Below are positions 5,627-63,201 of a DNA stretch of 64,000 bases, piece by piece. The DNA comes from an uncultured Thermococci archaeon. GTDB taxonomy: Archaea; CAYQAE01; CAYVLA01. Below the pieces are notes generated by a model, which saw nothing but the letters and a program-made list of their open reading frames with translations, ran no database searches and was not told the DNA's origin. The DNA is taken from the NCBI GenBank assembly GCA_964549615.1, contig CAZJVP010000020.1, forward strand, positions 64,001 through 128,000, in the 5' to 3' direction. How positions within the stretch are numbered: the first letter of the stretch is position 1; each line of letters opens with the position of its first letter. A program made the position numbers and the translations under genes.

Positions 5627-5634
5627 TCGAGCCG

Positions 5635-5925
5635 GGCTTGGAATCCCCTCATACATCCGTACACCGTTCCCGTTTCTAAGAGTCCCTATGACCTTCCAGT
5701 GCAGGACAAGCGTCCTCAAAGCCCGCTCCGAACGATTGTTGGTGAACTCCACGCCGGGATGACTCACCGCCGTGGACAGGTAAGGATAAGCAGCCTTGAC
5801 CTTCCTGACAAACCTTAAGATCTTTGCAGACCGGCACGCAAGCCTGCCTCTTTCCTCCGGGGGAGGATCGTTCTTCAGGGCTTCTTTGGACGTCTCATAG
5901 ATGCTGTGAAGACCCTTCCCCAGAG
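5635..5925 (-). mobile_element. IS66-family transposase remnant (C-terminal fragment)
   Basis: Minus-strand frame reads ...YLSTAVSHPGVEFTNNRSERALRTLVLHWKVIGTLRNGNG, matching the IS66 TnpC C-terminal TNNxxERALR motif. No intact N-terminus. Confidence 0.75.
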
Positions 5926-6071
5926 ATTAGGCCCCCATGTGCCGCGTATCTTTTTCCCCTGCCTTTCAACAGCGTCCTTCTGATCCTTCCCAGCCTTGTC
6001 GTTTCGGCTTGTGTGCCTTGTGTGCCCTGCACGCGTGCAGTTAAATAGGGTCAAGAGTCAGGCCTTGTGCA

Positions 6072-16863: not shown

Positions 16864-17253
16864 ATGACCGCAACATCGAGGGGCGTCCGAGATCTGAAGC
16901 GGAAGGCTGCGCGGGATGAGGATATCCTGGCCGTCATCTCGTTCGGCAGCTACGCAAGGGGCGAAAGCTACTCCGATGTTGACGTCTGCCTAGTCATGCT
17001 CCCACGGCGGTACGAGGAGTTATACCTTTCACAGAAGAGGCTCGATTATCAGGCCCTCCTTGGCCAAGACTTCGACGTTCAGATCTTCCAGCAACTTCCC
17101 TTGTATGTGAGGATCCGGGTCCTGCGGGAGGGTAGGGTCGAATTCTGCAAGGACGAACAAGCGCTCTACGACCTTGCATTTCAGACCATCGAAGAGTTCG
17201 AGGAGTTTGAGCCCATCTACCTTTCGTATCTGGAGGCCGTAGCCAGTGCTTGA
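16864..17253 (+). CDS. Minimal nucleotidyltransferase antitoxin (MntA-like, type VII TA)
   Basis: FGSYARGESYSDVDV (GSx9DxD), 129 aa, overlaps the downstream HEPN gene. Confidence 0.9.
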   Translation: MTATSRGVRDLKRKAARDEDILAVISFGSYARGESYSDVDVCLVMLPRRYEELYLSQKRLDYQALLGQDFDVQIFQQLPLYVRIRVLREGRVEFCKDEQALYDLAFQTIEEFEEFEPIYLSYLEAVASA

Positions 17254-17692
17254 TAGGCAAAGGGTTCTCGCCAAACTGGACGAGCTCGACTCCTATCTCC
17301 GCGAACTCCGGGACATTGCTCCCAGAAGCTATGAGGAGTATCTCGCATCGCGCGAGAAGCGGAGGGCCTGCGAGAGGCTCCTCCACATATCCATCGAATG
17401 CATCATAGACGCCTGCAACGTCCTAGTGTCAGGCATGAGGCTTGGCCTTCCGGCCGGCGAGGAGGACCTCTTCGTGAAGCTCCGGGACGCCGGCCTCATC
17501 TCGTCTGAACTGACGGACATGTTGAAGCGGATGCGGGCTTTCAGAAACATACTGGTTCATAGGTACGGGAGCGTCGACGACAGGTTGGTCTACGACGCCA
17601 TAGAGCGCAGGCTGGGCGACTTCGATAGGTTCAAGACAGAGATCCTGGAGAGAATGCGGACCCCGGGACGCAGGGCGGATGCGACGAAGTAA
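17246..17692 (+). CDS. HEPN/DUF86 toxin (HepT-like RNase)
   Basis: ACERLLHISIECIID and the Rx4H motif FRNILVHRY. Confidence 0.92.
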   Translation: MLDRQRVLAKLDELDSYLRELRDIAPRSYEEYLASREKRRACERLLHISIECIIDACNVLVSGMRLGLPAGEEDLFVKLRDAGLISSELTDMLKRMRAFRNILVHRYGSVDDRLVYDAIERRLGDFDRFKTEILERMRTPGRRADATK

Positions 17693-18081: not shown

Positions 18082-19341
18082 ATGGACAACCTGCGCTCAT
18101 CTGTGCTGATTACTCGCACCTCCTCGAACCTACAAGCAATCCTTGCGATGGTCGTTTCCTCGGCTATCTTCTGCGTGTTCCCTGCCCCGGGACTGGAGGA
18201 TGGTCGGATCGGCGTCCTCTACGTCGGCTGCGTAGCGCGCTCGCAGCCCTTCTGGATGATGAGATCCGATCCCCTGTTCAGGATGCAATTCGTGCAGGCA
18301 ACGATCCGCGACTTCATGATGTATGGGCCGATGCCTGCCAAGACAGACGCTGACGTGCACAGGATGGTTAGGCTTTACATGCCACGCACCGACCGGGAGC
18401 TAACGGAAAACTACGATGCAATCGTCCTCTCCGAGGCCAACGTGGATGCGGTTGGTCCCCACATCGACAAGCTGGCCCGAGCCGTCTCCGAGGGGGGCCT
18501 CGGCCTCGTCATGGCCGGTGGCTGGCAGTCGTTCGGAGCTGCCAGCTCCTATCACCCGTGGAGCGAAACCTCGATTGGACGACTCCTTCCGACCGAAGAC
18601 ATCGCCGGAACCTGGGATGAGTCCGTGTTTCAACGCCTAGTGATCGACAGGCCCGATCACGAGCTGATGAGCAGCGTTCCATGGCAGTCGGGCGATCCCG
18701 CTTTGGCCGGCGGGATATGGCACCACAACCGGGTCACCGTCAAGCTAGGCGCCGATCAGCTTGCGCATGTGGTATCGGGCTCAGGCCACGAGGACCCCCT
18801 CATGGTCACATGGAGGATAGAGACCGGGCCCCGGACCTTTGCGCTGACAAGCGAGTCATGCCGCCTTCCCCTGTGGATCTACGCCTACGACTACGTCAGC
18901 AACCTGATGATCTTCCTAGACGAGCGGCCGGTCCCTCAGGATGTGAACCTCGTTCACGCCGCGAGGTCGAAGATGCTCGAGACCAAGACAAGAAGGTCGC
19001 TTCTTTCTTCCCTCCTCGATTTCTGTGAATCATTTGGAGCGAACACCCGCAGTATGATGTCTAGGCTTGAGAAGATGGATGAGATAATTGCCAGCGCCAC
19101 CCCCAGGTATCTTGAGCTTCGTTTCGACGATATGATGGAGACCTACCGCCGGGTTGGCGAGATCCTCGACGATGCTGAGGAGGAGGCCATCAAGCTCAAG
19201 AACCGAACCTTGCTCTGGGTCTACCTGATCGAGTGGCTTGCGGTGAGCGGAACGGCGGCGGTCTGTGGATTCCTGCTATGGTCGCTGATGTTGCGTCGCA
19301 GGTTCTACAGGGAGGTTCAAACCACAAGGCTCGCCAGGTAA
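18082..19341 (+). CDS. Family A copy 1: membrane-anchored GATase1-like surface protein
   Basis: Signal peptide, GRIGVLYVG, RLYMPRT, YDAIVLSEA, GLGLVMAGGWQSFG, DFCESFGANT, TM LLWVYLIEWLAV..SLMLRRR. Confidence 0.8.
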   Translation: MDNLRSSVLITRTSSNLQAILAMVVSSAIFCVFPAPGLEDGRIGVLYVGCVARSQPFWMMRSDPLFRMQFVQATIRDFMMYGPMPAKTDADVHRMVRLYMPRTDRELTENYDAIVLSEANVDAVGPHIDKLARAVSEGGLGLVMAGGWQSFGAASSYHPWSETSIGRLLPTEDIAGTWDESVFQRLVIDRPDHELMSSVPWQSGDPALAGGIWHHNRVTVKLGADQLAHVVSGSGHEDPLMVTWRIETGPRTFALTSESCRLPLWIYAYDYVSNLMIFLDERPVPQDVNLVHAARSKMLETKTRRSLLSSLLDFCESFGANTRSMMSRLEKMDEIIASATPRYLELRFDDMMETYRRVGEILDDAEEEAIKLKNRTLLWVYLIEWLAVSGTAAVCGFLLWSLMLRRRFYREVQTTRLAR

Positions 19342-19657: not shown

Positions 19658-20788
19658 ATGGCTTTGGAGCTGTGGATGCATGGCATATCGGCACAGGACC
19701 CGCAGGCCTGCCTGGAAAGGCTTCACGATCTTGGGTTCTCGGCCGTGGTTCTAGGCACCGACCAACGCCAGTTGGCCGCAGCCAAGAAAGTCGGGCTGCG
19801 TGCATACGCGTGCACCGGAACCTTCTCCAGATCCAAGGAATTCCGGGACGAAAGCTACCTTGCGATAGACGTCGAGGGAAGCCCCCGCGAATGGTTTGGG
19901 TCAACGTGCCCAAACCGAGGTGCGGTGAGGGACTTTAACCTCTCCCAGATACGGGATCTGGTGACTAAGACCGATGCCGACGGAGTCCTCTTGGACGGCT
20001 GTCGCTTTGCCTCCCCGGCCTCGGGCCTAGAGGCATTCTTCACATGCTTCTGCCCGACCTGCGAGAAGAAGGCCCAAGAGATGGGCTACGATTTTGCGAG
20101 GATGAGGAAACAGATCAAGACGATCTACAGGATGCTTGCTGACGGCCGGCTCGGCAAACGACCCGTGGACATGAACCCCTTCCTCTTGCTTTCATCGATC
20201 TCGGTCTTTCCCGCACTTGGCGACTGGATCTCCTTCAGGACGGAGTGCATAATCGAGCACTTTTCAAGCGCCTCGGAGCTGGTCAGGGGGGCGGGCGCCA
20301 AGATGGGCGCTTACATCTTCACTCCCTGCCTGTCGCCGCTGGTCGGACAGCGCTACTCCAGCCTGGCTAACCTGTTGGATGTGGCCTCCCCCATGATCTA
20401 CAGGAACTACCCCGAGGGCGAGGGTCCTGCATGCCTGAACAAGGAAGCCGCGACCCTTGCCCGGTTTCTACGTCGGGGCGGGCTGAAGGACCGCAATGCG
20501 GTGGAGATCGTGAACCGGTTCCTCGGCTTGTGCGAGGAGGACAAGACCATATCTGGCGTGGATAGGGAGATCTCGTTGGAGTCCATCGAGCGGGAACTCA
20601 CAAGGACCGTGGTGTACCTAGGCGGCCGGCCGAAGGTTGTGCCGATACTCTACCTCGGGGATGAGCTCGTGGAGAACTGCGTCCAAGCCGCATCGTCCGC
20701 TGGGGTGGACGGAGTCAACTTCTTCGTCTACAAGGATGAGTGGAGCGGCGTCGTGGAGAGGATCTCCCAGTGCGCGCATCCGAAGTGA
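19658..20788 (+). CDS. Putative glycoside-hydrolase-like TIM barrel (GHL10/DUF187-like)
   Basis: TCPN..AVR, DGVLLDGCRF, CFCPTC, DVASPMIY, GVDGVNFF. Confidence 0.55.
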   Translation: MALELWMHGISAQDPQACLERLHDLGFSAVVLGTDQRQLAAAKKVGLRAYACTGTFSRSKEFRDESYLAIDVEGSPREWFGSTCPNRGAVRDFNLSQIRDLVTKTDADGVLLDGCRFASPASGLEAFFTCFCPTCEKKAQEMGYDFARMRKQIKTIYRMLADGRLGKRPVDMNPFLLLSSISVFPALGDWISFRTECIIEHFSSASELVRGAGAKMGAYIFTPCLSPLVGQRYSSLANLLDVASPMIYRNYPEGEGPACLNKEAATLARFLRRGGLKDRNAVEIVNRFLGLCEEDKTISGVDREISLESIERELTRTVVYLGGRPKVVPILYLGDELVENCVQAASSAGVDGVNFFVYKDEWSGVVERISQCAHPK

Positions 20789-22008
20789 GTGGGTTCACAG
20801 CCAGGACCCACGTAGAACGTTCAGCCGCCGGCCTGTTGGCGGTCTGCATGGGATTCCTCCTTTCCGTCCCCTTATGTGCGGCGAGGAGCGATCCTGCGAC
20901 GGGACGGGTGAGGTTGATCTACTTCGGAGACCCGATAGGTGCAAGCCCCTTCCCCTTCATGATGAACGAGCCGCTCCTCGCACCTGCAGCCGTGATGGCC
21001 TGCAAGATGTGGTACCCCTACGAGACCATACGCAAGAGCATGCGGATCTATGCGCCGCGCACCTTCGAGGCGTTGGACTCGTCGTACGACATGATCATCC
21101 TCAGCGACGCCAACGTGCTGAGCTTCGAAACAAGGCACCTGGACTGGTTCTCCCATTTCGTGGCCGATAAGGGCGGAGGGCTCGCGATGATCGGCGGGTT
21201 CGAGTCCTTCGGGGGCCAGGGCTACTTGTCCTGGGGTCCGACGCCGGTGGGCGATGTCCTGCCGGTCGAGTGCGTGGCCGGAGGCTACAACGCCGAGGGC
21301 CAGATAATCATCGTCCAGCCGGATTGCCCCGTGGTCTCCAACCTCCCATGGAACACCTTGGGCCCGAGCAACTACCTTGGGGGAAATCGGGTCACGCTCA
21401 AGACGGGATCTGAGCTTGTCGCCAGGTTCTCGGACTCAAACCCCCTCTTTGTATGGTGGAAGTGTGGAAAGGGAAGGTCGTACGCGATGGCCGGTGACTG
21501 GACCCCGGCCGGGGGAACGCAGTTCATGAAGTGGGATTACTATGGGGACTATGCGGTGAACGTCGTCCTATTCACGGCAAGCGAGGAGGTCCCCGCCGAT
21601 GTAGAGATCATGCATTCGGTCAGAGGGATCCTTCGCGCCTATGGAGAGACGAAGGGCTACCTGTACTCCCTTATGGATTTTGCCGAGAAATTCGGCGCCA
21701 GCATGAACGGGATCGAGCGAAGCATCGGCGAGGCCGAACTGGAGGCCTCGCGTGCCAGGTCCCTCTATATGTCCTACGATTTCCATGGCGCCGCTTCAGC
21801 CGCCGCGGAAGCCGTGGCGATGCTGGAGGCTGCGTTGGATGACGCCGTCCGCGCAAAGGACAGCGCAATGCTTTGGGTATTCCTCGTAGAGTGGTTGGCG
21901 GTGATCTCGACTTGCATGGTCTCCGGCCTGGTGCTCTACGAGTTGATGATCGCGCGGCGGCTGCTCAAGCCAGCCCCATCGAGCATCTTCACCAAAGGCA
22001 TGTCCTAG
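20785..22008 (+). CDS. Family A copy 2: membrane-anchored GATase1-like surface protein
   Basis: ARSDPATGRVRLIYFGD, RIYAPRT, YDMIILSDA, GLAMIGGFESFG, GKGRSYAMAGDWTPAGG, DFAEKFGAS, MLWVFLVEWL. GTG start overlaps the previous stop. Confidence 0.85.
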   Translation: MSGFTARTHVERSAAGLLAVCMGFLLSVPLCAARSDPATGRVRLIYFGDPIGASPFPFMMNEPLLAPAAVMACKMWYPYETIRKSMRIYAPRTFEALDSSYDMIILSDANVLSFETRHLDWFSHFVADKGGGLAMIGGFESFGGQGYLSWGPTPVGDVLPVECVAGGYNAEGQIIIVQPDCPVVSNLPWNTLGPSNYLGGNRVTLKTGSELVARFSDSNPLFVWWKCGKGRSYAMAGDWTPAGGTQFMKWDYYGDYAVNVVLFTASEEVPADVEIMHSVRGILRAYGETKGYLYSLMDFAEKFGASMNGIERSIGEAELEASRARSLYMSYDFHGAASAAAEAVAMLEAALDDAVRAKDSAMLWVFLVEWLAVISTCMVSGLVLYELMIARRLLKPAPSSIFTKGMS

Positions 22009-22237: not shown

Positions 22238-23434
22238 GTGAGAGAAACCGCGGTTGCCGCTGTGTGCCTGTACCTCGCGGCAGCCTCGCTTGGCCCGACG
22301 GGTCTCGCGGCGACCAACGAGACGATCGCGAGGCAGCTCATGACCCAGCTGGGGAGGTTCGGGCCGTCCTATCCCGACTCACCAGACAGACACGACGCCC
22401 TTCTCCAGATCGACAGCCTCTTCCTGAACGATAGCCTTGGACCGCTCCGGGCGTTGGTCAAGGAAATGATCTCGACCGCGTTGTCCGACATCGTGGGCTA
22501 CCAAGGATCGGCCCCAAGGGTGTGGTACTTCTGGAACATGGGCTACATCGTAAAGGCGAAGGGCCAGGTGCTGGGGTTTGACCTTGCCGAGCTGCAGCTC
22601 GCACCGCTCAACGCTGAACAGAAGAAGCTGCTCGGCCAGAACCTGGACGTACTGTTCGTCTCCCATGTGGACAATCCGCATATAGACAGGGACCTTGTGT
22701 CGTACATGAGGGCCGAGTCGTTCGTCGTCTGTCCGGCTGAGGACGTCTCCTTCTTCGATACCGTGTTGGACAGGAAATGCGCGATCGTTGGCATGAAAGC
22801 GGGGGAGAAGCGTCAGGTCGGCTCCACGTCCGTGGAGGCTTACCCCGGTGACCACGGCGCCGGGGGACCCAACATGCGCTGTTACTTAGTATCAATTGGT
22901 GGAACCAAGCTCATGCAGACCGGCGACCAGCGCACCGTTGCGGAGTGGATGAAGGAGGTAGGCAGGAAGTCGCTCGACGTTCTCATGATCAACCCCCTTT
23001 GGGAATACAACTGGACGGTGGAGGCGGTCAGGACCATGAAACCGTCCTGCGCGCTGCCCGGAACGATGTACGATATGTCGCACGAGAAGGAGACCTGGCA
23101 CGGATATCCCTATGCCTTCCGGCTCAGGGAGGACGTGGGGCCGAACGTGTTCCCGATCTTCTTTGGGGAGAGGATATCGATCCCGACGTCGTCCTCGGAT
23201 TCCCTTTCCTTCGTGCTAATCGGCCTCGTTGCGGCAGCCGGCGTCGCGGTAGCGTATGGAGCGGTGGCCCGGAGGAGGAGAACGCCCGGCGCGAAGCTTC
23301 CCAAGCCAGCTGCGGATTTGATGTGCCAAAAGAGGTACGTTCCGGAGCTTTGCGTGACGTGCAGGCACTACGTCGTGAAGGGCGGCAAGATCCACTGCTC
23401 GAAGCACAACATCGCCCTCGACTCCGAGACCTAG
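22238..23434 (+). CDS. Secreted MBL-fold (UlaG-like) protein with TM anchor and cytoplasmic Cys4 tail
   Basis: Signal peptide, NMGYIVK..GFD, LDVLFVSHVDNPH, QTGD, TM, then CQKRYVPELCVTCRHYVVKGGKIHCSKH. Confidence 0.8.
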   Translation: MRETAVAAVCLYLAAASLGPTGLAATNETIARQLMTQLGRFGPSYPDSPDRHDALLQIDSLFLNDSLGPLRALVKEMISTALSDIVGYQGSAPRVWYFWNMGYIVKAKGQVLGFDLAELQLAPLNAEQKKLLGQNLDVLFVSHVDNPHIDRDLVSYMRAESFVVCPAEDVSFFDTVLDRKCAIVGMKAGEKRQVGSTSVEAYPGDHGAGGPNMRCYLVSIGGTKLMQTGDQRTVAEWMKEVGRKSLDVLMINPLWEYNWTVEAVRTMKPSCALPGTMYDMSHEKETWHGYPYAFRLREDVGPNVFPIFFGERISIPTSSSDSLSFVLIGLVAAAGVAVAYGAVARRRRTPGAKLPKPAADLMCQKRYVPELCVTCRHYVVKGGKIHCSKHNIALDSET

Positions 23435-23435
23435 G

Positions 23436-24767
23436 TCAGTCCTCAAAGGGGATGGGAAGCTTGTGCTTGGAGCAGTAATGACTTCCGGCCCTTATCGTGT
23501 TGTATCTGCAGAACGGACACAGTTCTTTGGCGGGCTTTCCCTGGCAGACCTCGTATGGCCTCTTCTTAGCCCTTCCCGCTTGGGCCGTTCCTTCCTTGCG
23601 TTTCCGGCTCCTCACGACCCAAGGCGAGACGACCCCCAGGACCAAAACGATTGCAACCGCAACATAGAGGAGTGGAATCCCGCTGCCTTCAGGCTTGGCT
23701 ATCTCGCCCCTGAATCGCGTGACCCCGGCGGATGTGGCAAACCAAACGTAGGCACCGTCGACTGCAATGTCACGGACTTCGCTGGACGCAAGGCCCTCTG
23801 ACCTCCTGTAGACGCCGATGCCGCCCCGTCGTCCGATGGCCGTGACTCCGAAAGTCAAGCTCCCGGCCCATATCCTCGAGTTCGTGGCGACGGACCCCAC
23901 CGAGTTGTCCGCGAGTCCTGTGGACTTGTCGTAGGTGACGATCGAGCCGTCTTCAGGATCGTACCGGCACAACCCTCCCGCCCCGGTGCCTATCCAAAGG
24001 AACTCGTCATCTGCGGCCAGCGCCAGGATCCGACTGTCCGAAAGGCCGTCGCCGATGCTGACCTGCTTCTTGAAGCTCAGGGAGGCGCGGTCGAAGCCGA
24101 GGACTCCGTTCGCGTTCGTCCCGAACCATATCATCCCTTTCAGAACCGCCACCGCGCTCGTTGTCTTCTCTGGCAGCCCCGCCCCGCCGATGGTCTGGAA
24201 CGAGGGGATCTCTGCGTCGAGAGAGGCCCGTGCTCCGCCGCCCGAGGTTGCTATGTACAGGTACTCCCCGTCGCTCGCTAGGTCGGCCACGCGGTTGTCG
24301 GGCAGACCGTTCTCCGTCGTGTAGGACTCCCAGGCACCTGATCTGTACCTAAACAGCCCGTCACCGAAAGTTCCCAGCCAGACGCCTCCCTTGGCGATAT
24401 GTATGCATACGACCCTGGTCGCGAGGCCGGGCGGACTCATGGCAGTCCAGGTCCCGCTGGACGCAGCGAACCTTGCGACCGCGCCGGCCATCCCAGCCCA
24501 GACTTCGCCCTTCGAGGCCGCTATGCTGAACACGTTCTCGTCCGGCAAACCTTCATCGCGGCCAAAGCTTGTCCACGTTGCTTCCTCTGTCTGCGCATCG
24601 CAAGACGGGGGAGAGAGCGTGAGGACTGCGATTATGCAGGCCAGCCCCGCCGCTACCGTTCCTCGGCTTTGAACGTAAGCCGGTAGACCACAGCGATCGC
24701 CACCAAGCCGAGCGCGGTGAACAGCGCCAGACGAATGATCCTTCTCTGTGAGCTCTTCTTCCTCCAC
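23436..24767 (-). CDS. Two-component-regulator-type (Reg_prop) beta-propeller protein with TM anchor and cytoplasmic Cys4 tail
   Basis: Repeats GLPDENVFSI / GLPDNRVADL / GLSDSRILAL / GLADNSVGSV / GLASSEVRDI with WxGT, then TM and CQGKPAKELCPFCRYNTIRAGSHYCSKH. Start uncertain (GTG 24767 has an upstream GGAGG). Confidence 0.8.
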   Translation of the reverse strand: MEEEELTEKDHSSGAVHRARLGGDRCGLPAYVQSRGTVAAGLACIIAVLTLSPPSCDAQTEEATWTSFGRDEGLPDENVFSIAASKGEVWAGMAGAVARFAASSGTWTAMSPPGLATRVVCIHIAKGGVWLGTFGDGLFRYRSGAWESYTTENGLPDNRVADLASDGEYLYIATSGGGARASLDAEIPSFQTIGGAGLPEKTTSAVAVLKGMIWFGTNANGVLGFDRASLSFKKQVSIGDGLSDSRILALAADDEFLWIGTGAGGLCRYDPEDGSIVTYDKSTGLADNSVGSVATNSRIWAGSLTFGVTAIGRRGGIGVYRRSEGLASSEVRDIAVDGAYVWFATSAGVTRFRGEIAKPEGSGIPLLYVAVAIVLVLGVVSPWVVRSRKRKEGTAQAGRAKKRPYEVCQGKPAKELCPFCRYNTIRAGSHYCSKHKLPIPFED

Positions 24768-25675
24768 TCCGATGCCTCCTTGGCGAGTTCGGCCTTCTTC
24801 CGCTGGAACGCATCGAGGCTTGATTTCAATGCTTCCATGCGTTGCTGCGAGGTAGTTCTGCCCCTTTCCGCTGTCCATCTCAGGCAGCTTTTCAGCAGTG
24901 CCTGGAATTCCGGGTTGTAGACGACCCCGGAGTAGTCGTCGGGGCCTCCCCGCTCCGTCAGGCCGAATGCGGGGAGCACTACAGACCGGCCCGCGTCCTC
25001 ATAGGCTATCACCGCCGGCACCATCCCGTCCTCATAGGAACTCTTGGCCTCCTGGGTCTTGTAGACCACGGCCATCGTGCCCACGGATGGCTTGGGAGGA
25101 TCCCTGGCTTTGGTCTCGCCCGCCAAGCTTGACCAGTAGAGCCTGACATCGCTGAAGAAGATCTGGTCCGGCAGCCCGGCGGCGATGGGATGGGTTGGGT
25201 CGCTTTTCACGTAAGTGTGTCCCATGGCTATCTTGCCTCCCACCACGGTCAGACGACCTTCGCTTGTCGCATTAGCAAAGACGGGCAGGATGGTGCGCGA
25301 GAGATTGGTCGCAAATGCAACTTCGTTGATCCCGATCAAACCTACGCCTCTATCGAACAGCTCGATCATCGCCGCCTGCAGTTCAGCAGGGATCAATGCC
25401 GAATAGATCGATATGATTCCGACATAGGTCTGGGGGAAGGCTAGGTACTCGACGAATTCGCCCAGCGAGCCCACAACGACTGGCTTGAGGCCCAGCGAGG
25501 TATCGTTTGCGATGATTTGGGCGAGAGCCGATGCATAGGCCCCGAAGATGTTGCTTTCACCGGGCAGCTGCTGGTAGCCATTCGCGCAGAGGATCGGCAC
25601 GATTCCTTCCTGGCCCGTCGCGATCGGAAGGCAAAACGCCAAGATGATGAATGCGACGAACCGCGTTCCCGGCAT
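24653..25675 (-). CDS. Family C copy 1: secreted ThuA/GATase-like fold protein with helical stalk and C-terminal TM
   Basis: Signal peptide, FDRGVGLIG, HPIAAGLPD, VIAYEDAGRSV, PEFQALL..RW, TM. Paralog of 50633-51625. Confidence 0.7.
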   Translation of the reverse strand: MPGTRFVAFIILAFCLPIATGQEGIVPILCANGYQQLPGESNIFGAYASALAQIIANDTSLGLKPVVVGSLGEFVEYLAFPQTYVGIISIYSALIPAELQAAMIELFDRGVGLIGINEVAFATNLSRTILPVFANATSEGRLTVVGGKIAMGHTYVKSDPTHPIAAGLPDQIFFSDVRLYWSSLAGETKARDPPKPSVGTMAVVYKTQEAKSSYEDGMVPAVIAYEDAGRSVVLPAFGLTERGGPDDYSGVVYNPEFQALLKSCLRWTAERGRTTSQQRMEALKSSLDAFQRKKAELAKEASEWRKKSSQRRIIRLALFTALGLVAIAVVYRLTFKAEER

Positions 25676-25677
25676 GG

Positions 25678-26559
25678 CTACACCTCCACGTAACCTCCGT
25701 TCTCGATGATGTGTAGCAGGATCTTGTCCGCAGCCAACTCCCCATCGATCTCGAACTTGACCATGTGAACCAGGTACTTGCCGTAGAGCTGCTTGGCGAA
25801 CAGCTTGGGATAGGCACTGTATGCTGAGCGGATGCGGTAGACTATGGAGACCCGGTCATTCCTGGCAAGATCGGAGAACACGATCCTGCCCTGTCCAGGG
25901 GCCTTGCTAGCCGGCAGCGCGCCGGCCGCAAGCGCGGCCTTGTCCTCCGCGGACACGTACGTCGTCTTGTTGGCGTTCACCGTGATCTCGAGCCCCTTCA
26001 GGGAGATCTCACGCATGAAGAAGTAATCCGAGACCCCCTCGTAGAGGCCTTCGATCATCTTGGACTTGTTCAAGACGACCGCGTAGACGGTCGGGTAGTA
26101 GGATGACCCGCTCGGCGGAAGAACGGGGTTGAGAGCCGGACCGAAATCGTAGACCACCATGGTTCGCCTCCCGCCCCCGATGTCCACATCGGACACCGTC
26201 ACCTCCGGCTTGTAGCCCAGATCCTGCACCAGGCCAAGCTTTCCACTGATCTGTTCGATCACCTCGCCGGCCCTTCGCGGATCGTCCACCTTTGGCGAAG
26301 CCTCGGTGAAGTTGGGCCGAACCGGCATGAGGAAGGAGAACGACACAGCAACCTGTTTGAGCGGCTCCCTGCAGATGAAGGCGACCGAGTACTTGTCCTG
26401 ATCAAGCTCCGATACGCCCGCGAGAGCTTTCAGCGGAAATGATTGATCTATCACGTTGATGGGCGTCTCTATCTTCTCTTTGATCAGGTAGAGGGAGATC
26501 AGGCTCCCCACTATCAAGGATATGACAAGGACGCCGATGAGCCGCCTCTCGACCTTCAT
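25678..26559 (-). CDS. Family B copy 1: N-terminally anchored hypothetical protein
   Basis: Single N-terminal TM. Aligns by eye with 51622-52470 (SFPL/EYPL, YEG..YFF..EISL/FEG..FF..ERSL, APGQGRIVF/APADGVLVF). Confidence 0.7.
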   Translation of the reverse strand: MKVERRLIGVLVISLIVGSLISLYLIKEKIETPINVIDQSFPLKALAGVSELDQDKYSVAFICREPLKQVAVSFSFLMPVRPNFTEASPKVDDPRRAGEVIEQISGKLGLVQDLGYKPEVTVSDVDIGGGRRTMVVYDFGPALNPVLPPSGSSYYPTVYAVVLNKSKMIEGLYEGVSDYFFMREISLKGLEITVNANKTTYVSAEDKAALAAGALPASKAPGQGRIVFSDLARNDRVSIVYRIRSAYSAYPKLFAKQLYGKYLVHMVKFEIDGELAADKILLHIIENGGYVEV

Positions 26560-26619
26560 GATCGACCGCCTCGGTTTGCAGAGAGGGAGTATAGAAAAAA
26601 GGGAAAAAAGGCAGAAGGC

Positions 26620-29313
26620 TCAACTTCTGCCCCTAAGTCTCCTGGCAGCTGCTAGCGATACGAGGAACAGTGCTGGAATCACTGCTTCAGGGACGCCAAA
26701 GTAATTGGTGTTGCGAAGGTCCCTGTACATGTACGGCCAGGGCGTCGACGAGGACAGCACCAAGCCGGATATCGGCGTCTCCACCCCGAAGATGCCCTTG
26801 GTGGCTATCACGCTCACATTGCCCCTCTCGTCGCCGTACAGAAGCTCGGTTATCCCGTCGCCGTTCATGTCCACGGCCACCGCGTGGTTCCACCGGAACC
26901 TGCCTGAGTTCACGGCCTGGTAGGTCCAGACGACCCTCCCGTCGCTGCCGCGCAGGGCATAGATCCTGCCGTCCGAGCCTCCGACTATGACCTCGGGCTT
27001 CCCATCGCCCGTTATGTCCGCGACTATCGGATACTCGGGCTGGAAGGCCCCTAGGACCTGGCTCGATAGGTTCTGCCTCCAAACCACGGCTCCCTTGTAG
27101 TCCAAGCAGTATACGAGGCCGGTTCTCCTGAGAGTGAACACGGTCTCCAGCTTGCTGTCGCCGACCAGATCCGCAACCTGCGCCTTGCTTACCCTCACCC
27201 GCATCCCTGAGTCGAAGACCCACTTGCGCGTGCCCGTGTCGTCGACGCAATACACACGCCCCTCGTAGGCACCGCCAACGACGATCTCAAGATACCCGTT
27301 GCCGTCGATGTCCGCTATCGAGGGCGCCGCGTTCAGGCGATCGCCGGGCTCCACAGGGCTCACCCATAGAGGTGTGCCGTCGGCCTTCCACGCGTAGATC
27401 CCGTAGAGCACCTCGTCCTCCGACGTCATAACTATGTCCAGACTGCCGTCGCCGGTGATGTCCGCCACCGCAACCGTATTCTCGCCTATCGATCCAACCG
27501 GAGCTTCCCACAAGGTCTTGCCGGTGTAGTCGAAGACGAAGAATTTCTTGAGCTCCTTCGAGCCGACCAGTATCTCCAGCTTGCCATCCTTGTTCAGATC
27601 CACCAGCGTGGGCGAGCAGTACAGTATGTTCGGGTCGCTGGGGGGCACCCCCGCCCACAAGAGCTTGTACCAGAGAGTCCTGCCCTGGTTGTCAAGCACC
27701 CGCATCGTTCCGTTCCTGGTATTGAAGACGATCTCCGGTTTGCCGTCGCCGTTGATGTCGCCAATCGCTGGCAACCTATAGATTTGATAACCGGCAGTGT
27801 AGCGCCACAGTTCTTTCTTAGCCTGGTAATCCAACGCGAACAGAATGCCCGTTCCGCTGGTGCCCACGATGATCTCGGGTTTGCCATCGCCGGTTATGTC
27901 CGCTGCGAAGGGCGGCGCCTCTATGCTGCCGCCGACATTGTAGGTCCATATGGGGTACTCCCTCGGGAAGTAGTTGTTGTTGTTCGGGGTTCTGCACATC
28001 AGTGGCCAGGGGGATGACCAATCTCCCACGAACATGCCTGGTGTCTTCAGCACGCTCACGTTGCCCCTCTCGTCCCCGTATATGATCTCTGCCCGCTGGT
28101 CGCCGTCCAGATCGGCGACGCACGGCTGGTTGTACTGGAACCTCCCTGCGTTGATGGCTTGGTAGGTCCACACAACCTTGCCGTCCGCACCGTTCAGAAC
28201 GTAGATCTTGCCATCCGAGCCGCCCAGAACAACGTTGGGCTTGCCGTCGCCCGTCACGTCCGCAAGAACCGGTAGCTCCGGATGGAATCCGTTCAGAACC
28301 GGAGCTGTCAGGTTGGTTATCCATAGCTGCTTGCCGGTGTGGTCAAGTGCATAAACGAGACCCGTTCTCTTGACGACGAACACGAGATCCAGCTTGCCAT
28401 CGCCGTTGAGATCGCCCAAGGGCGTCTTCCCCACCCTGTCCCGTTTCCCTGCAGAGTCTGCCGTGTCGAACACCCATTTCCTTGCGCCCGTGCGGTCGAG
28501 GCAGTATACGCGGCCTTGGTAAGCACCGCCAACAACGATCTCCACGTAGCCGTCGCCATCCAGGTCCGCAATGGACGGGCAGAAGTTGAGAATATCTCCC
28601 GTCTCAACCTGATGGACCCAGATCGGTTTGCCGTCTGCCTCCCAGGCGTACACCGCATACAGGGTTGCGTCCTCCGACGTCAGCACAATCTCCAAGTCGC
28701 CGTCGTTGTCGATGTCTGCCACTGCAGCAGTGTTGTCGCCAATCTTCCCTATCGGAGCGTTCCACAGCTCTTTACCGGTGTAGTCGAACACGAAGAACTT
28801 CATGAGTTCCTTGGAACCGACCATGATCTCCAGCTTGCCATCCTTGTTGATGTCGGCGAGAGCCGGCGAGCAGTACAACCGATCGCCCGGATCAGTGCTG
28901 GGGTCCCCAGCCCATAAGTTCTTTTGCCAGACAAGCTTACCTTGGTTGTTGAGGACCCGCATCGTGCCGTTCCTCGCATTGAAAACGATCTCCGGCTTCC
29001 CGTCGCCGTCGATGTCGCCCACCGCGGATATTCTGACGATCTGGAATCCAGCGTCGAATTCCCACAGTTTTGCGCCGTTCACGCCGTTGAGCACCGTCAG
29101 CTTGCCCGTTTCCCTGCCTCCGACGATCAGCTCGGGCTTGCCGTCTCCTGTTATGTCAGCCGCCATTATGGGCGATTCAATCCTGCCGCCCACGTTCGTG
29201 GTCCAAACTAGTGTTCCTTCAGCTAGCACTGGTACGATCCCTGCCAATCCGATCAAGCACGCAGCAAGTGCGACGCTGATCGGAAAGACTCGAAAACTCC
29301 TGCAGACCTTCAT
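26620..29313 (-). CDS. FG-GAP/PQQ-like tandem beta-propeller surface protein with VPE-type C-terminal sorting signal
   Basis: Many DxxGDGxxE Ca-binding repeats, two internally duplicated halves, signal peptide after ATG 29313 (GGAGG upstream), ends GVPEAVIPALFLVSLAAARRLRGRS. Confidence 0.88.
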   Translation of the reverse strand: MKVCRSFRVFPISVALAACLIGLAGIVPVLAEGTLVWTTNVGGRIESPIMAADITGDGKPELIVGGRETGKLTVLNGVNGAKLWEFDAGFQIVRISAVGDIDGDGKPEIVFNARNGTMRVLNNQGKLVWQKNLWAGDPSTDPGDRLYCSPALADINKDGKLEIMVGSKELMKFFVFDYTGKELWNAPIGKIGDNTAAVADIDNDGDLEIVLTSEDATLYAVYAWEADGKPIWVHQVETGDILNFCPSIADLDGDGYVEIVVGGAYQGRVYCLDRTGARKWVFDTADSAGKRDRVGKTPLGDLNGDGKLDLVFVVKRTGLVYALDHTGKQLWITNLTAPVLNGFHPELPVLADVTGDGKPNVVLGGSDGKIYVLNGADGKVVWTYQAINAGRFQYNQPCVADLDGDQRAEIIYGDERGNVSVLKTPGMFVGDWSSPWPLMCRTPNNNNYFPREYPIWTYNVGGSIEAPPFAADITGDGKPEIIVGTSGTGILFALDYQAKKELWRYTAGYQIYRLPAIGDINGDGKPEIVFNTRNGTMRVLDNQGRTLWYKLLWAGVPPSDPNILYCSPTLVDLNKDGKLEILVGSKELKKFFVFDYTGKTLWEAPVGSIGENTVAVADITGDGSLDIVMTSEDEVLYGIYAWKADGTPLWVSPVEPGDRLNAAPSIADIDGNGYLEIVVGGAYEGRVYCVDDTGTRKWVFDSGMRVRVSKAQVADLVGDSKLETVFTLRRTGLVYCLDYKGAVVWRQNLSSQVLGAFQPEYPIVADITGDGKPEVIVGGSDGRIYALRGSDGRVVWTYQAVNSGRFRWNHAVAVDMNGDGITELLYGDERGNVSVIATKGIFGVETPISGLVLSSSTPWPYMYRDLRNTNYFGVPEAVIPALFLVSLAAARRLRGRS

Positions 29314-29989
29314 TTCATCCTCCTCTCTCCTTTCGAGTAGGCGCGCAGAGGCTTGTCGGCCTTCTCTTAAAGGTTGCGTCACCCAGTTCAGTTCACCGTC
29401 TAATCCAACCCGATTCAACCAGATGGACCCCTGGCCTGCGATGTCCCCGGATAAAGGACGGATGGCTAGAAACCCTAGTAGACCAAGAGACGCTGTCGAG
29501 GGGCCGCAGGGGCAAGAACGCCCTTGAAGGATTCGGTCGAGCCTTTTAGCCAGCACATCCGTACGTCCGAGAAGCTGCTCCCGCGGAATCAACCTTGAGG
29601 CCCGCCCGAGCAGGGATCACCCCAACATCGAGGTGGGATCGACTCGGCAGGCCCCGCAGATGTTCGGTAAACCCACATATGCCACACTTTGCAAGAGGAG
29701 CTATCGGTGGCTCAGCCCGAGGAGACACCGGCTTCCAACCCGCGACCGGGTGTATCGAATGGGTGGATGGGATTTCGGGTATCTCTTCTTCCCCGGAGGA
29801 GACAAAGGACTCCGGCCTCTCCAATCGCTTTGTCCGAAGCCCTGTGCATCAACGTGCCGTCCCGAACTTAATCGCCTGCTGGAGGTCATCCGGATCGGGA
29901 AAACGGAAGAGTGTAAACACGTCCCTTCGCCTGACAGCGAGCCCCAGCGGGGAACACTTAAGAGGCCTCGAAGGGCCCGAGCGAACCAC

Positions 29990-31207
29990 ATGAAGGCTCT
30001 GGCATCTGCATTCGGGATCGGTCTCGTAATCCTCGCATCCCTCGGGTGCATCCCGGCCCGGCAGGATCCAGCAACCGGGAAGGTACGCCTTCTCTACATC
30101 GGGGATTACGTTGGCCCCAACACCCCGGCCCGCTTCCTGGACGAGGAGCCGCTCATATCCGTGAGGGGGGTGCCGGCCACCCTTGCTTGGTACCAGGAGA
30201 CGTTCATCCGGAAATTCATGAGAATCTACATGCCGCGAACCTACGAGGACCTGTCGGGCAATAACGATGTCATCCTCTTCAGCGACGCGGGGGTGCGGAT
30301 GTTCGAGGCCAGACACTTCGCTTGGTTCAAGGATGCCGTTGTGAATGATGGACTGGGCATGGCGATGATAGGGGGCGTGGAGAGCTTCGGCGCCGAGCCC
30401 GGTAGGCCGCCCTGGATTGGCACGACCGTCGCCGAAATACTTCCCGTTGAGGGCGTGTTCCAGAGCTTCAACCCGGCGACCGGCACGGTGGCAATCCTCA
30501 AGCCGGACAACGAGTTCATCGCAAGCCTTCCCTGGGATACGTTGGTTCCCCCGATGAACACGTTCCTGAGGTTCAACGATCTGATCCTGAAGGAAGGCGC
30601 CGATGAACTGGCCGCGCTGATGGTTGGGAAGGAGAGCCATCCCTTCCTGGTCACCTGGCTGCAGGGAAAGGGACGGACGTTCGCCATGGGGGCCGACTGG
30701 ACGCCCACCGGCGGGGTCAACTTCATGAAGTGGGAATACTACGGAGACTACGCAAGCAACCTAGTGCTCTACACGGCGCAGACAAAGGTGCCGTCTGAAC
30801 ATGGGCTCAGACACGCATACAAGACGCTTGCGATGAAGTACCGGGACGGCAAGGTCCTCTTGATGGCGACGCTGGACTTCGTGGAGAAGTTCAACGCAAA
30901 CACGCGCTCCCTCGTCATCGACATAAACGCAAACGAGCTGCAGAAGAAGGAGGCCGAGAAGCTGTACATCGAGCAGGACTTCGAGGCAGCCGTGTCCAAG
31001 ATGAGCGAGGTCATCCAGCGAAACGACGAGCTCACGATCGAATCGTTGAAGCTGAGGGACAGGGCACTCCTCTGGGTCTACGTCATCGAGTACCTGGTCG
31101 TGACCGCCACCTGCCTCATCACGGGGACATTGGTTTACACCTTGATGATCAGACGCAGGCTCTACCGCGAAGTCGAGATGACGAGGGGCAAGGGAAGAAG
31201 GCTTTGA
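29990..31207 (+). CDS. Family A copy 3: membrane-anchored GATase1-like surface protein
   Basis: Start at ATG 29990 (MKALASAF signal), ARQDPATGKVRLLYIGD, RIYMPRT, GLGMAMIGGVESFG, DWTPTGG, DFVEKFNANT, LLWVYVIEYL. Confidence 0.85.
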   Translation: MKALASAFGIGLVILASLGCIPARQDPATGKVRLLYIGDYVGPNTPARFLDEEPLISVRGVPATLAWYQETFIRKFMRIYMPRTYEDLSGNNDVILFSDAGVRMFEARHFAWFKDAVVNDGLGMAMIGGVESFGAEPGRPPWIGTTVAEILPVEGVFQSFNPATGTVAILKPDNEFIASLPWDTLVPPMNTFLRFNDLILKEGADELAALMVGKESHPFLVTWLQGKGRTFAMGADWTPTGGVNFMKWEYYGDYASNLVLYTAQTKVPSEHGLRHAYKTLAMKYRDGKVLLMATLDFVEKFNANTRSLVIDINANELQKKEAEKLYIEQDFEAAVSKMSEVIQRNDELTIESLKLRDRALLWVYVIEYLVVTATCLITGTLVYTLMIRRRLYREVEMTRGKGRRL

Positions 31208-32697
31208 AGAGCGCGAGCCGCTACGCTTTCATGGTCTTCATCCAGTTGCTGGCAGCGCACGCCAGCGGCGGGGCATCGGCCGACTCGCCCTACGGCGTGG
31301 TTCACGGAGATCGCACCTCCTTCCTGGTGGAGGGCGGCTTCAGCTGGACAAGGGTGGACTTCAACTGGAACGCCATTGAACCCCAGAATGGCACCTTTAC
31401 GTTCGAGCAATACGACAGTTTCGTTGAGAACTGCACGCGCGCTGGCATACACGTCTTGGCCATACTGGACTACTCCGCCAACTGGGCATCGTCCGGCCCA
31501 CCCGACTGGAAGGACATAGACCGGTTCCCGCCCAAGTACATGAGCGACTGGGAGGAATACGTCTTCCAGACCGTCAGCCACTTCAAGGACCGCGTCAAGC
31601 ACTGGGAGGTCTGGAACGAGCCCAACATTCGGTACTTCTGGTTTCCAAAGGCCGACGCGAAGGAGTATTACCGGCTGCTAAAGTCCGCCTACGCCGCTGC
31701 AAAGAGGGCCGACCCGGAGTGCACTGTTTTGATCGGAGGGATCATAGGATTCGACGTGCGATACCTCCGTGAGGTATACGAGCTGGGCGGAGCGAGGTTC
31801 TTCGACGTCATGGCAATCCACCCCTACTCGGCCGAGCCCTACGACAGATGCAACTTCAGCGGCAACATGTCGGCGCTCAGATCGCTCATGGCCGAGTACG
31901 GGGACTCGAAGAAAGAGATCTGGTTTACGGAGCTCAGCTGGACGGTCTCGCAAAACCTCTCGAAGGATGACCAGGCAGCCTACCTCATCCGCTCGTACGT
32001 CCTGTCCTTCGCGGAGGGCGCGGACAAGTTGTTCTGGTTCAACCTTAACGCGGCCCCGCCACCGGAGGAGAGCTCCGGGCTGATCGAGCACGATCTCACA
32101 CCAAGGCCGGCCTTCTGGGCCCATAAGGCCCTAGCCGATATCGTAGGACCGGCAGAATACCGGTGTAGGGTCAAGCTTGGCACGGGAATCCATGCCCACC
32201 TTTTCCACCGGGAGGGAACGTACGTCATGGTCCTCTGGGCCCCCAACGAGACCGCCGAAGTCAGACTCAGAATGGCATCGAGGAGTTCCAGCCCCCGCCT
32301 CTGGGACATGTTCGGCAAGGCGATTCAGCCATCCATCAAGGGACGGTTCATTTCGCTTGAAGCGTCACCACACCCGATCTTCATCTCGAATCTGAGCGAG
32401 GACGATGTTCAAGCACTGCTGGCCCGACGGGGTTGGATTCCGTTTGTGAGCTTGGCCGCGCTGGTCGCCGCGGTCGGATGCTCGATGGCATACCTTTGGG
32501 TGCGGCGACGCCGTGGCCCAGCTCCTACGCAGCGGGCCGATGGGGAGAAGCCGCCAACCAGGTCCGCGACGAAGTTCGGAGATGTGCCGGCCGAATGCCA
32601 AAAGGCTTTCAAGGACACGGTCTGCCTCAAGTGTAGGCACTACGTGATCCAGGGAGGAACTGGACGTTGCAGGAAGTTCGGCATAAGGTTGGACTAG
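31204..32697 (+). CDS. Clan GH-A glycoside hydrolase (GH39/GH5-like) with TM anchor and cytoplasmic Cys4 tail
   Basis: Signal peptide, acid/base WEVWNEPN, AIHPY, nucleophile IWFTE, TM, then CQKAFKDTVCLKCRHYVIQGGTGRCRKF. Confidence 0.85.
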   Translation: MKSASRYAFMVFIQLLAAHASGGASADSPYGVVHGDRTSFLVEGGFSWTRVDFNWNAIEPQNGTFTFEQYDSFVENCTRAGIHVLAILDYSANWASSGPPDWKDIDRFPPKYMSDWEEYVFQTVSHFKDRVKHWEVWNEPNIRYFWFPKADAKEYYRLLKSAYAAAKRADPECTVLIGGIIGFDVRYLREVYELGGARFFDVMAIHPYSAEPYDRCNFSGNMSALRSLMAEYGDSKKEIWFTELSWTVSQNLSKDDQAAYLIRSYVLSFAEGADKLFWFNLNAAPPPEESSGLIEHDLTPRPAFWAHKALADIVGPAEYRCRVKLGTGIHAHLFHREGTYVMVLWAPNETAEVRLRMASRSSSPRLWDMFGKAIQPSIKGRFISLEASPHPIFISNLSEDDVQALLARRGWIPFVSLAALVAAVGCSMAYLWVRRRRGPAPTQRADGEKPPTRSATKFGDVPAECQKAFKDTVCLKCRHYVIQGGTGRCRKFGIRLD

Positions 32698-33899
32698 CCC
32701 TCCTTGCCTGCGCAGCCATCACGATGGGATTCTTGGCCCCGGCTTCAGCCGCCCGCCACGACCCCCAGACCGGGCGTATCAGGATACTCTTCATCGGCCA
32801 GCTCGTCGGCGCGGTGAACCTCTTCACCTCTTGGTACACGATCGAGCCGAGGATGACCGTTCAACCGGTTCCCTGCTCGCTCCAGCAAGTGTTGTTGACG
32901 GAGGCCAAACGCCTCGTCCGCCTTTACGTTCCACGCACCTACCAGGAGATGGTTGGGAAGTACGACTGCGTCGTGGTCCAGGACCTAGGCCCCGACGTCC
33001 TCTCACCCAATTTCCTACCAGACTTCCGGAGAGCCATCGAAGAGGAGGGCCTGGGCGCAGTCCTCGCGGAGTTCGTGTACTGGGTTGGAAACGGCAACAG
33101 GATAGACCTCTGGATGGCCTCGACCTTCTATGATATCGTGCCTGCAGACATACTGTTCGGGATCGAGATCCCACAAGGCCAGAACTCCTTCTACAAGCTG
33201 GTTGGAAATAACCCCATCCTGCAGCTGCCCCAGATCGAGAAGTACCAGATGAACGGCGGCCACCACGGGCCCATGATAGCCCGCCAGGGCAGCGAGGTCC
33301 TGGCCATCTGGAGGGGCCTCGAGTACCCGGCGGTGACCTTCAGGAATTCGGGACGCGGCGCGCTCATCCAGATAGGACACGGATTTGACAATATCCCATC
33401 ATCCACCTTGTACGACTGGACATACTCCCAGGACTACGCCTACAACCTCGTCTACGGCGCGACCCAGGAGGAGATCCCCAAGGATCTTGAGTTGGTGAGG
33501 AAGGCGAGGTCGCTCTTCACCTCGGCCGCTGAGAAGAAGTCCCTGGTCTTCGCGATCCTGGAGTTCGCCGAGAGGTTTGGGGCCAACACCCACCCGATAA
33601 CGAGGGAGATCGGAAATCTGGCGGAGAGGTACGCTGAGGGCAACTCCCACTACATCGACGGAGACTACGAACAGGCTGCCGCGGTCTACGAGGAGATCAT
33701 CGAAGAGTATGACAGGCTTGAGGCCAAAGCGCTCGCGCTGAAGGACAGGGCGCTTCTCTGGGTCTACACGATTGAGTGGCTCTCCGTGTCAGGCACCTCG
33801 ATGCTCTCGGGGTTTGTCCTTTACTCGCTCATGGTGAGGCGAAAGATGTTCCGGGCAGTTGATTCCACCAGGACGGCCTCCAAACGGAGATCGACATAG
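32667..33899 (+). CDS. Family A copy 4: membrane-anchored GATase1-like surface protein (divergent)
   Basis: ARHDPQTGRIRILFIG, RLYVPRTY, EFAERFGANT, LLWVYTIEWL..SLMVRRK. TTG start with GGAGG upstream. Confidence 0.85.
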   Translation: MQEVRHKVGLALLACAAITMGFLAPASAARHDPQTGRIRILFIGQLVGAVNLFTSWYTIEPRMTVQPVPCSLQQVLLTEAKRLVRLYVPRTYQEMVGKYDCVVVQDLGPDVLSPNFLPDFRRAIEEEGLGAVLAEFVYWVGNGNRIDLWMASTFYDIVPADILFGIEIPQGQNSFYKLVGNNPILQLPQIEKYQMNGGHHGPMIARQGSEVLAIWRGLEYPAVTFRNSGRGALIQIGHGFDNIPSSTLYDWTYSQDYAYNLVYGATQEEIPKDLELVRKARSLFTSAAEKKSLVFAILEFAERFGANTHPITREIGNLAERYAEGNSHYIDGDYEQAAAVYEEIIEEYDRLEAKALALKDRALLWVYTIEWLSVSGTSMLSGFVLYSLMVRRKMFRAVDSTRTASKRRST

Positions 33900-62994: not shown

Positions 62995-63083
62995 GGGCCC
63001 GTAGTCTAGTGGTTGCCGGTCAGGCCACAGATGACGTCACCCTCACACGGTGAAGACCCGGGGTTCAAGTCCCCGCGGGCCCA
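62995..63083 (+). tRNA. tRNA-Val(CAC) with a 16-nt D-loop intron (63015-63030), CCA not encoded
   Basis: Acceptor GGGCCCG/CGGGCCC. Anticodon arm TCACC-CTCACAC-GGTGA. T-arm CGGGG-TTCAAGT-CCCCG. Splicing gives GTCT-AGTGGTTA-TGAC. AATATTAAAG lies upstream. Confidence 0.92.
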
Positions 63084-63201
63084 CTCATATCCTGCCGGAT
63101 AGGCACCTCCAAAGCACGCCCAGTCTCGCATCCAGCCTATCCTGCCGAACGGGCCGAGCCCACCCCGGGGACAGGCCTCCCTGAAAACCCCGCTCCACCC
63201 A

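Follow-up and report, generated by a model that had tools for sequence, protein, structure and literature searches.

Three genes with a common tail

The stretch of DNA analysed here, called the window, is 64,000 nucleotides long and comes from an uncultured Thermococci archaeon. It corresponds to C20:64001-128000 of a 3.21-Mb assembly of 104 contigs with 60% GC. Small-subunit ribosomal RNA fragments in it identify the organism as an archaeon, with scores of 676 and 476 bits for the archaeal model. Three of its open reading frames (ORFs), here T1, T2 and T3, encode proteins with unrelated ectodomains that end in a short segment with four cysteines in the arrangement C-x8-C-x2-C-x11-C, referred to below as the Cys4 module or tail. 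An earlier reading of the window from its letters alone (the sequence-only reading) had pointed out the likeness. The three tail peptides it quoted are exact translations, with coordinates that begin at the first cysteine and end at the fourth, and the order of parts it described is found in all three proteins: a transmembrane (TM) helix, an arginine/lysine cluster, a linker (12, 20 or 25 residues long) and the module, which ends a long ORF.

T1 (22238-23434, + strand) is a 398-aa protein with the layout of a type-I membrane protein. A signal-like N-terminus is followed by an ectodomain of the metallo-beta-lactamase (MBL) fold resembling UlaG, a TM helix (23201-23269, residues 322-344), the cluster RRRR, a 12-residue linker and a module of 42 residues (23306-23431; first to fourth cysteine, 23324-23398) that matches the family profile with E 9.8e-21. 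T2 (23436-24878, - strand) has 480 aa when counted from its first ATG and consists of a Reg_prop beta-propeller, a TM helix (23613-23687, about residues 398-422), the basic cluster RSRKRK, a linker of 20 residues and a 42-residue module (23439-23564; cysteines spanning 23472-23546), whose sequence was used for modelling. Its real start probably lies downstream of the first ATG, since the copy in the databases (P0026) has only 365 aa. T3 (31204-32697, + strand; 497 aa), identical to database protein P0010, has an ectodomain resembling clan-A glycoside hydrolases (GH), a TM helix (32443-32502, residues 414-433) followed by RRRR, a 25-residue linker and a 39-residue module (32578-32694; cysteines spanning 32596-32670; profile E 4.5e-17).

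T1 and T2 are convergent, a single nucleotide separating their stop codons, and the same convergent pair is present in a genome of the same genus (locus L022). The facing ends of the two genes form an inverted repeat of just 35 nt with 71% complementarity, which arises because the encoded peptide is shared, so an inverted-repeat artefact was rejected as the source of the likeness. A recent DNA repeat is likewise ruled out as the origin of the tails by their codon-level divergence. In a nucleotide alignment of the three window tails, 35 of the 129 columns are invariant and agreement lies mainly at constrained codon positions.

T3 is closely packed against its neighbours. Its start overlaps the upstream gene by 4 nt, and the first possible start of the downstream GATase1_like gene (TTG, 32667) lies 31 nt inside the end of T3 (32667-32697), within the part that codes for the Cys4 module. 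The overlaps at both ends suggest that the operon is tightly packed or that the downstream gene really begins further on.

The ectodomain assignments of the sequence-only reading (MBL, Reg_prop and clan-A GH) hold, that of T1 at the level of its family. Against Pfam, the T2 ectodomain matches Reg_prop (E 1.7e-13) and that of T3 matches GH39 (3.8e-8), GH10 (8.5e-8) and GH42 (2.9e-7). T1 itself has no match in Pfam or NCBIfam. Its aligned family members do match, five of the seven to Lactamase_B_3 and two of the seven to Lactamase_B_2, and one relative carries a UlaG-like name from its source. The AlphaFold model of T1 is of low confidence (pLDDT 54.7), and the top Foldseek matches to it are solely MBL-fold chains (2wyl, E 5.8e-9). 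A profile search of the Protein Data Bank (PDB) with the MBL-like family gave no MBL match, the best being an SRP54 chain at E 0.008. The Lactamase_B matches of the relatives and the Foldseek chains are what support the assignment of T1.

The Cys4 family in the genome

Among the 18,811 six-frame ORFs of at least 80 aa in this genome there are 14 matches to the exact pattern C-x8-C-x2-C-x11-C, where 30 residue shuffles yielded 1.4 on average and never more than 5. When only the final 50 residues of an ORF are considered, there are eight matches, against 0.4 (maximum 2) after shuffling. Nine of the 14 exact matches form one family, alike beyond the cysteines; a tenth copy has x7 in place of x8. 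A profile built from these ten copies scores every one of them at a per-genome E of 1e-16 to 1e-20. Five of the ten lie on Reg_prop propellers (T2 and those on contigs C48, C88, C103 and C43, the last a fragment), two on clan-A-like glycosidases (T3 and C36), one on the MBL-fold protein T1, one on an unassigned ectodomain with no Pfam match (C77) and one on a 150-aa protein with two TM helices (C67).

Contigs C37 and C7 both break off inside the same propeller gene, just where the first residues of its Cys4 module are reached, and the rest of that gene opens C43 (16785-17057). Near-identical paralogues that split the assembly may account for these breaks, in which case the genome may have 11 tail genes.

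Only the four cysteines are invariant, in all ten copies of this genome and in all 36 aligned tails of the family. The spacing x8/x2/x11 is found in 35 of those 36, with x7 in the other, and a lysine two positions after the fourth cysteine in at least 90% of the genome's ten copies and in 70% or more of the aligned tails. The further conserved residues listed in the sequence-only reading, CQ, CR(H/Y) and CxK, are true of the three window tails and are not kept across the family as a whole.

Distribution and history of the module

Pattern and profile searches, which had been proposed along with that reading, gave the ten family copies in the genome and 19 real protein matches in the databases. 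The latter come from a profile search of 1,835,955,588 protein representatives that returned 21 matches at E<=1e-3; the 19 all carry the module at the C-terminus, and one of them is T3. The other two, P0022 and P0024, were rejected as cysteine-rich repeats that lack the architecture. A further search, seeded by words, gave 32 among 5.8 billion clusters. Besides the ten copies in the window's own genome (G000), there are 11 in a genome of the same genus (G001) and three and eight in two further genomes of the same family (G002 and G003), and none in the sole other genome of the phylum (G004). The module is thus present in four of the five genomes of the phylum that were searched, these being all four of the window's own family. 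Among 36 other archaeal genomes there are no copies in 35 and one weak match (E 0.003) in the last. A search for related loci with an alignment of eight tails gave six confirmed loci, five of them in records named 'Candidatus Hadarchaeota archaeon'; the sixth is a chance match of 11 residues in a bacterium. Among the genomes and databases searched, the module therefore appears confined to one uncultured archaeal lineage at the level of a family, a narrow range.

Within this lineage the tail is found on at least seven architectures: the Reg_prop propeller, the MBL fold, the clan-A-like GH, GH99, an unassigned ectodomain, the small 2-TM protein and a multi-TM protein. Some of these are seen among the relatives, which add a GH99 ectodomain (P0021, E 2.6e-36), the multi-TM protein P0014 and P0016, a protein of 208 aa. 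Propellers are the commonest hosts, with five of the ten tails in the genome and 20 of the 36 aligned.

In a maximum-likelihood tree of 48 tails, built on 40 columns and with many unresolved forks, the ectodomain label changes nine times, where the minimum is eight and the mean after shuffling is 24.2. There are two broad types of tail. The first is that of the propellers, with GH99, multi-TM, no-TM and C77-type proteins among them, and the second is common to the MBL, GH-A and 2-TM proteins. As the tails group almost perfectly with the class of ectodomain, the attachments would be old and few, with no ongoing shuffling. The idea of a mobile module contained in the sequence-only reading needs a qualification. 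Unrelated proteins have acquired the module, but the tree indicates that this happened rarely and long ago and that the tails later diverged together with their hosts.

Membrane side and anchoring

The tail was taken from the start to be intracellular, and the positive-inside rule agrees. Counted over 15 residues on each side of the TM helix, lysine plus arginine is higher after the helix than before it in seven of the eight type-I members, C77 being the exception. For T1 the counts are 1 before and 6 after, for T2 3 and 5, and for T3 2 and 5, the helices having mean Kyte-Doolittle values of 2.33, 2.55 and 1.97, respectively. A hydrophobic signal-like segment is present at the N-terminus of seven of the eight type-I members, and in the 2-TM member both the N-terminus and a stretch behind the second helix are basic. 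From this charge bias, and because the ectodomains are of kinds that act outside the cell, we infer a cytoplasmic tail.

The reverse arrangement, with the tail outside the cell and its cysteines in two disulfides, is very improbable. Four invariant cysteines could in principle make two disulfides, but the charge bias places the tail inside in seven of eight members, GH, propeller and MBL domains behind signal-like segments belong outside, and both ends of the 2-TM member are basic.

A C-terminal cassette of a TM helix and basic residues, present on many unrelated surface proteins of one lineage, recalls the archaeosortase and exosortase signals (PGF-CTERM and PEP-CTERM). In such signals a short signature immediately precedes the TM helix, and the protein ends right behind the basic cluster. 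The Cys4 cassette differs in both respects: no motif ahead of the TM helix is shared by the eight type-I tail members, and the protein continues for 50-110 further residues that include a folded Cys4 domain. Counted from the basic cluster, these comprise a linker of 12-30 residues and a module and tail of 39-72. The same genome nonetheless has the sortase-type arrangement, another point of likeness. Paralogues with the same ectodomains have either a PEP-CTERM-like end ('VPEP + TM + basic') or no anchor, and two genes of the exosortase/archaeosortase family score above the PF09721 cut-off (C88:53688-54371 and C51:56558-57319). These two genes are accounted for by the paralogues with VPEP-type ends. 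PEP-CTERM-like ends, with (V)PE(P), a hydrophobic helix and a basic cluster, were noted in this genome at C2:764-2506, C9:5037-7037, C101:30062-31573, C36:30386-33142 and C23:1127-3829.

That the Cys4 end is replaced by sortase-type ends in paralogues favours a role in anchoring or organising. The tail might lock surface proteins in place or cluster them, through anionic lipids of the inner leaflet, self-association or the 2-TM member, and so be an alternative to the archaeosortase-type anchoring of the paralogues. Its position where the paralogues have 'VPEP + TM + basic' ends, the two exosortase-family genes that exist for these, and the conservation of a single-copy 2-TM module protein in all four genomes speak for such a structural anchor or organiser. 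So does the composition of the module, which is rich in aromatic residues and basic, its net charge lying between +2 and +6 in each of the nine cases measured. However, the TM helix and basic cluster anchor the protein already, there is no conserved motif ahead of the helix, and no evidence of self-association or lipid binding was obtained. Overall this role is doubtful. As the TM helix alone would anchor, and an extra domain is conserved all the same, the module probably does more than anchor.

A new domain and its predicted fold

No named domain corresponds to the module, as the sequence-only reading had supposed: three tails against Pfam, two against NCBIfam and the family profile against the PDB all gave no match. 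At E<=1 the three tail constructs returned nothing from Pfam save one chance-level row for the tail of T3 (Rv2743c, E 0.25), the two tails returned nothing from NCBIfam, and the best E in the PDB profile search was 1.1. Structural comparison with a model of only 42 residues, which has little power, gave a best E of 2.6 with Foldseek against the PDB and none of 48,161 chains at Z>=2 with VIA-align. The ESM Atlas held no usable match for the tail, and the best scores of the 2-TM protein, 0.80, are at noise level. In the literature no description of the Cys4 module was found at the level of listings and abstracts.

An AlphaFold2 model of the T2 module, made with 36 aligned sequences, has a mean pLDDT of 88.1. 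In this model a short helix (residues 3-7) ends at the first cysteine, the CxxC opens a helical turn, a beta-hairpin (strands 22-25 and 28-31) ends at the fourth cysteine, and a further short strand is present. Between orthologues the module is 50-86% identical, the ectodomain 50-77%, the TM helix 20-64% and the linker 25-73%. Module identity always exceeds that of the TM helix and linker, and equals or exceeds that of the ectodomain in four of the six best pairs; it is lower in T1 (50 versus 51%) and T6 (72 versus 77%). The module is a real domain under purifying selection, and the fold predicted for it is a confident one.

It constitutes a new domain family that belongs to a well-known general type, that of small cysteine-rich cytoplasmic modules on single-pass membrane proteins. 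Among these are the ZAS anti-sigma factors and the membrane proteins with N-terminal zinc-ribbon or DZR modules, which likewise have a small cysteine-rich module that binds a metal (in Cys4 a predicted property) on the cytoplasmic side of a single-pass protein. In these proteins the module is found at the N-terminus, with HxxxCxxC or paired CxxC knuckles. In contrast, the Cys4 module is C-terminal, has the pattern C-x8-C-x2-C-x11-C and is matched by no Pfam model. Its C-terminal position, different cysteine pattern, archaeal host and restriction to one family-level lineage set it apart from the known examples.

Zinc or an iron-sulphur cluster

Going by the cysteine pattern, the four cysteines most likely hold one metal centre. 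Zinc is the probable occupant, with the balance modestly in its favour; an iron-sulphur (Fe-S) cluster is a serious alternative, though a minority one, because the pattern is not that of a zinc ribbon and the first three cysteines fit a motif of anamorsin. A zinc ribbon would have two CxxC or CxxH knuckles and two beta-hairpins, and the module has one CxxC and, in the model, one hairpin.

The order of lone cysteine, CxxC and lone cysteine occurs in the cluster motifs of endonuclease III and WhiB, which favours an Fe-S centre. Again in favour, the first three cysteines have the same spacing as the CX8CX2C part of the anamorsin (CIAPIN1) M1 motif CX8CX2CXC, which binds an Fe-S cluster (PMC8251831). 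The fourth cysteine, on the other hand, follows at x11 rather than x1 and no profile match links the two; anamorsin, moreover, is a soluble eukaryotic protein. On this alternative the tail would be a redox or iron sensor with a [2Fe-2S] or [4Fe-4S] cluster on its four cysteines, the state of the cluster controlling the stability or activity of the surface protein. The host is probably an anaerobe rich in Fe-S enzymes, and a gene for aldehyde ferredoxin oxidoreductase adjoins that of the 2-TM member. Nevertheless there is no match to CIAPIN1 or any other Fe-S family of Pfam at E<=1 and no conserved proline/glycine pattern of the kind typical of ferredoxin motifs, and the compact hairpin fold that AlphaFold predicts without a cofactor suits a small zinc finger at least equally well. 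An Fe-S sensor is accordingly a tentative candidate.

Docking or signalling

Our preferred reading, to which we give slightly better than even confidence, is that the Cys4 tail serves as a lineage-specific, metal-binding docking handle in the cytoplasm. It would form a C-terminal cassette of a stop-transfer TM helix, a basic cluster, a variable disordered linker and, at the cytoplasmic end, a Cys4 domain of about 40 residues, carried by surface proteins that a single uncultured lineage of archaea exports by a Sec-type route. The Cys4 domain would fold around a single metal centre, and the handle would let unrelated ectodomains that bind or degrade glycans (propellers, glycoside hydrolases and an MBL hydrolase) engage the same partner in the cytoplasm or at the inner leaflet. 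Such docking, suggested by the occurrence of the same module on unrelated proteins, may serve to report on surface proteins or to position them.

Several observations weigh against this. The pattern of a lone cysteine, a CxxC and a second lone cysteine, the lone ones 8 before and 11 after, is not the two-knuckle pattern of zinc ribbons, and its order is commoner in Fe-S motifs. P0016 has no evident TM helix, although it may be a fragment. Among 59 neighbouring ORFs scanned, no conserved cytoplasmic neighbour of the type-I members was found, and DNA-binding domains of the helix-turn-helix (HTH) type occur in only two, at different loci. The genes that do recur beside the tail genes, GATase1_like, FG-GAP, '293-aa' and '318-aa', were considered as dedicated neighbours and rejected. 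Their families have 148, 28, 31 and 17 ORF matches genome-wide, and because these families of surface proteins are so hugely expanded, their adjacency is expected by chance.

A special case of docking is an output for transmembrane signalling. The ectodomains would be glycan sensors, and the tail would hold or release a cytoplasmic regulator or be freed by intramembrane proteolysis. That the commonest hosts are Reg_prop propellers, one relative being named by its source 'ligand-binding sensor domain-containing protein', would suit such a role, as would the basic character of the module. The tail genes moreover lie amid genes for sulfatase, GH2, GH9, GH129-like and FG-GAP proteins.

There is also a precedent in the RsgI factors of Clostridium thermocellum. 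These are bacterial, their cytoplasmic domain is N-terminal and lacks a Cys4 motif, and a partner gene, sigI, is adjacent. Nine of them serve as sensors of different substrates and undergo cleavage within the TM helix (PMC12203970, PMC10328401 and PMC6852018). The likeness lies in a small cytoplasmic domain common to single-pass proteins whose outer parts are unrelated and carbohydrate-binding or GH-like, and in the several copies per genome of a polysaccharide degrader; it provides an example of one cytoplasmic domain on different sensing ectodomains. The Cys4 domain differs in being C-terminal, in an archaeal host without sigma factors, in having no adjacent partner gene and in showing no sequence relation. 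The C-terminal position of the cytoplasmic part, set against the N-terminal one in both RsgI and ZAS factors, argues against signalling, as do the want of a dedicated regulator gene beside the tail genes (the two HTH-type ORFs among the 59 scanned notwithstanding) and the tail-less paralogous propellers, which end in parts that resemble sorting signals and not signalling domains. We consider a signalling output unlikely.

It is conceivable, at a similarly low probability, that the tail is the output of a new archaeal one-component system for sensing glycans or organising the surface, in which some ten unrelated ectodomains per cell share a metal finger. The common partner might then be the 2-TM Cys4 protein together with the DUF4838 enzyme encoded in its operon, or the finger might be cleaved within the membrane to act on transcription. 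If true, archaea would have their own counterpart of the RsgI/anti-sigma logic on an unrelated fold.

Links from the cell surface to the cytoplasm are poorly known in archaea, and for uncultured lineages there is almost nothing. In the lineage concerned the genome is unusually large and densely filled with genes for surface proteins and carbohydrate-active enzymes. Whichever partner the proposed docking handle has, its identity would reveal a new route of transmembrane signalling in archaea or else a novel means by which surface enzymes are organised. At minimum, the module is a new domain family that annotation pipelines have left blank.

The 2-TM member and its neighbour

The 150-aa 2-TM Cys4 protein is encoded by a single-copy gene in all four genomes that have the tail. 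No other version of the module is as conserved as the one it carries, and its linker is conserved too, with 31 invariant columns in 13 sequences. This Cys4 copy is also a divergent one. A gene for a 642-aa DUF4838 protein without a signal peptide follows on the same strand, 40-82 nt downstream in the three genomes compared. In the window's own genome (locus L035, G000:C67:1-12000) the 2-TM gene lies at 3505-3957 (+) and the DUF4838/GH67N-like gene at 4039-5967 (+). Upstream and divergent are the aldehyde ferredoxin oxidoreductase gene and one for a CobW/HypB-like GTPase.

The linkage of the first two genes has indirect support in the databases, where six pairs of a 2-TM protein and a close DUF4838 relative, one of them from the genome's own contig, list an equal size for the longest contig. 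Relatives of the DUF4838 protein are widespread without the 2-TM protein (915 matches at E<=1e-20, some named Anaerolineae, Brockarchaeota or Thermoproteota). A complex prediction with residues 70-150 of the 2-TM protein, the DUF4838 protein and two zinc ions gave a score of 0.00, the mark being 0.32, and weighs neither way.

Genomic surroundings and minor observations

The surroundings of the tail genes contain sulfatase, GH2, GH9 and GH129-like genes, FG-GAP/carrageenase-like propeller genes and transporter genes. About 1.5 kb from the tail propeller of C88 is a gene for a zinc transporter of the ZIP family (L041, G000:C88, 10803-11549, -). This is one locus and may be coincidence.

In the window there are four membrane-anchored GATase1_like (PF07090) paralogues, all on the + strand, at 18082-19341, 20740-22008, 29633-31207 and 32667-33899. 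Their C-terminus has a strongly conserved TM helix of the form LWVY-x-IEWL-x-V followed by RRR-x-YR. The 148 ORF matches of the family come from an iterative search of the 3.2-Mb genome. About 130 are full length, and this one family takes up roughly 5% of the genome. On the - strand a unit of three genes encodes a ThuA-like protein of 340 aa (24653-25675), an unassigned protein of 293 aa (25678-26559) and an FG-GAP/carrageenase-like propeller of 990 aa (26620-29592). Their families, with 17, 31 and 28 ORF matches genome-wide, are often found beside GATase1_like genes, and the unit looks like a repeated cassette of surface proteins.

Elsewhere in the window a gene for an MNT-like nucleotidyltransferase (16864-17250, +) overlaps by 5 nt one for a HepT-like RNase (17246-17689, +), arranged as in type VII toxin-antitoxin pairs. 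A tRNA-Val(CAC) gene at 62995-63084 (+) has 90 nt, above the standard size of a tRNA, and may hold an intron, as is common in archaea.

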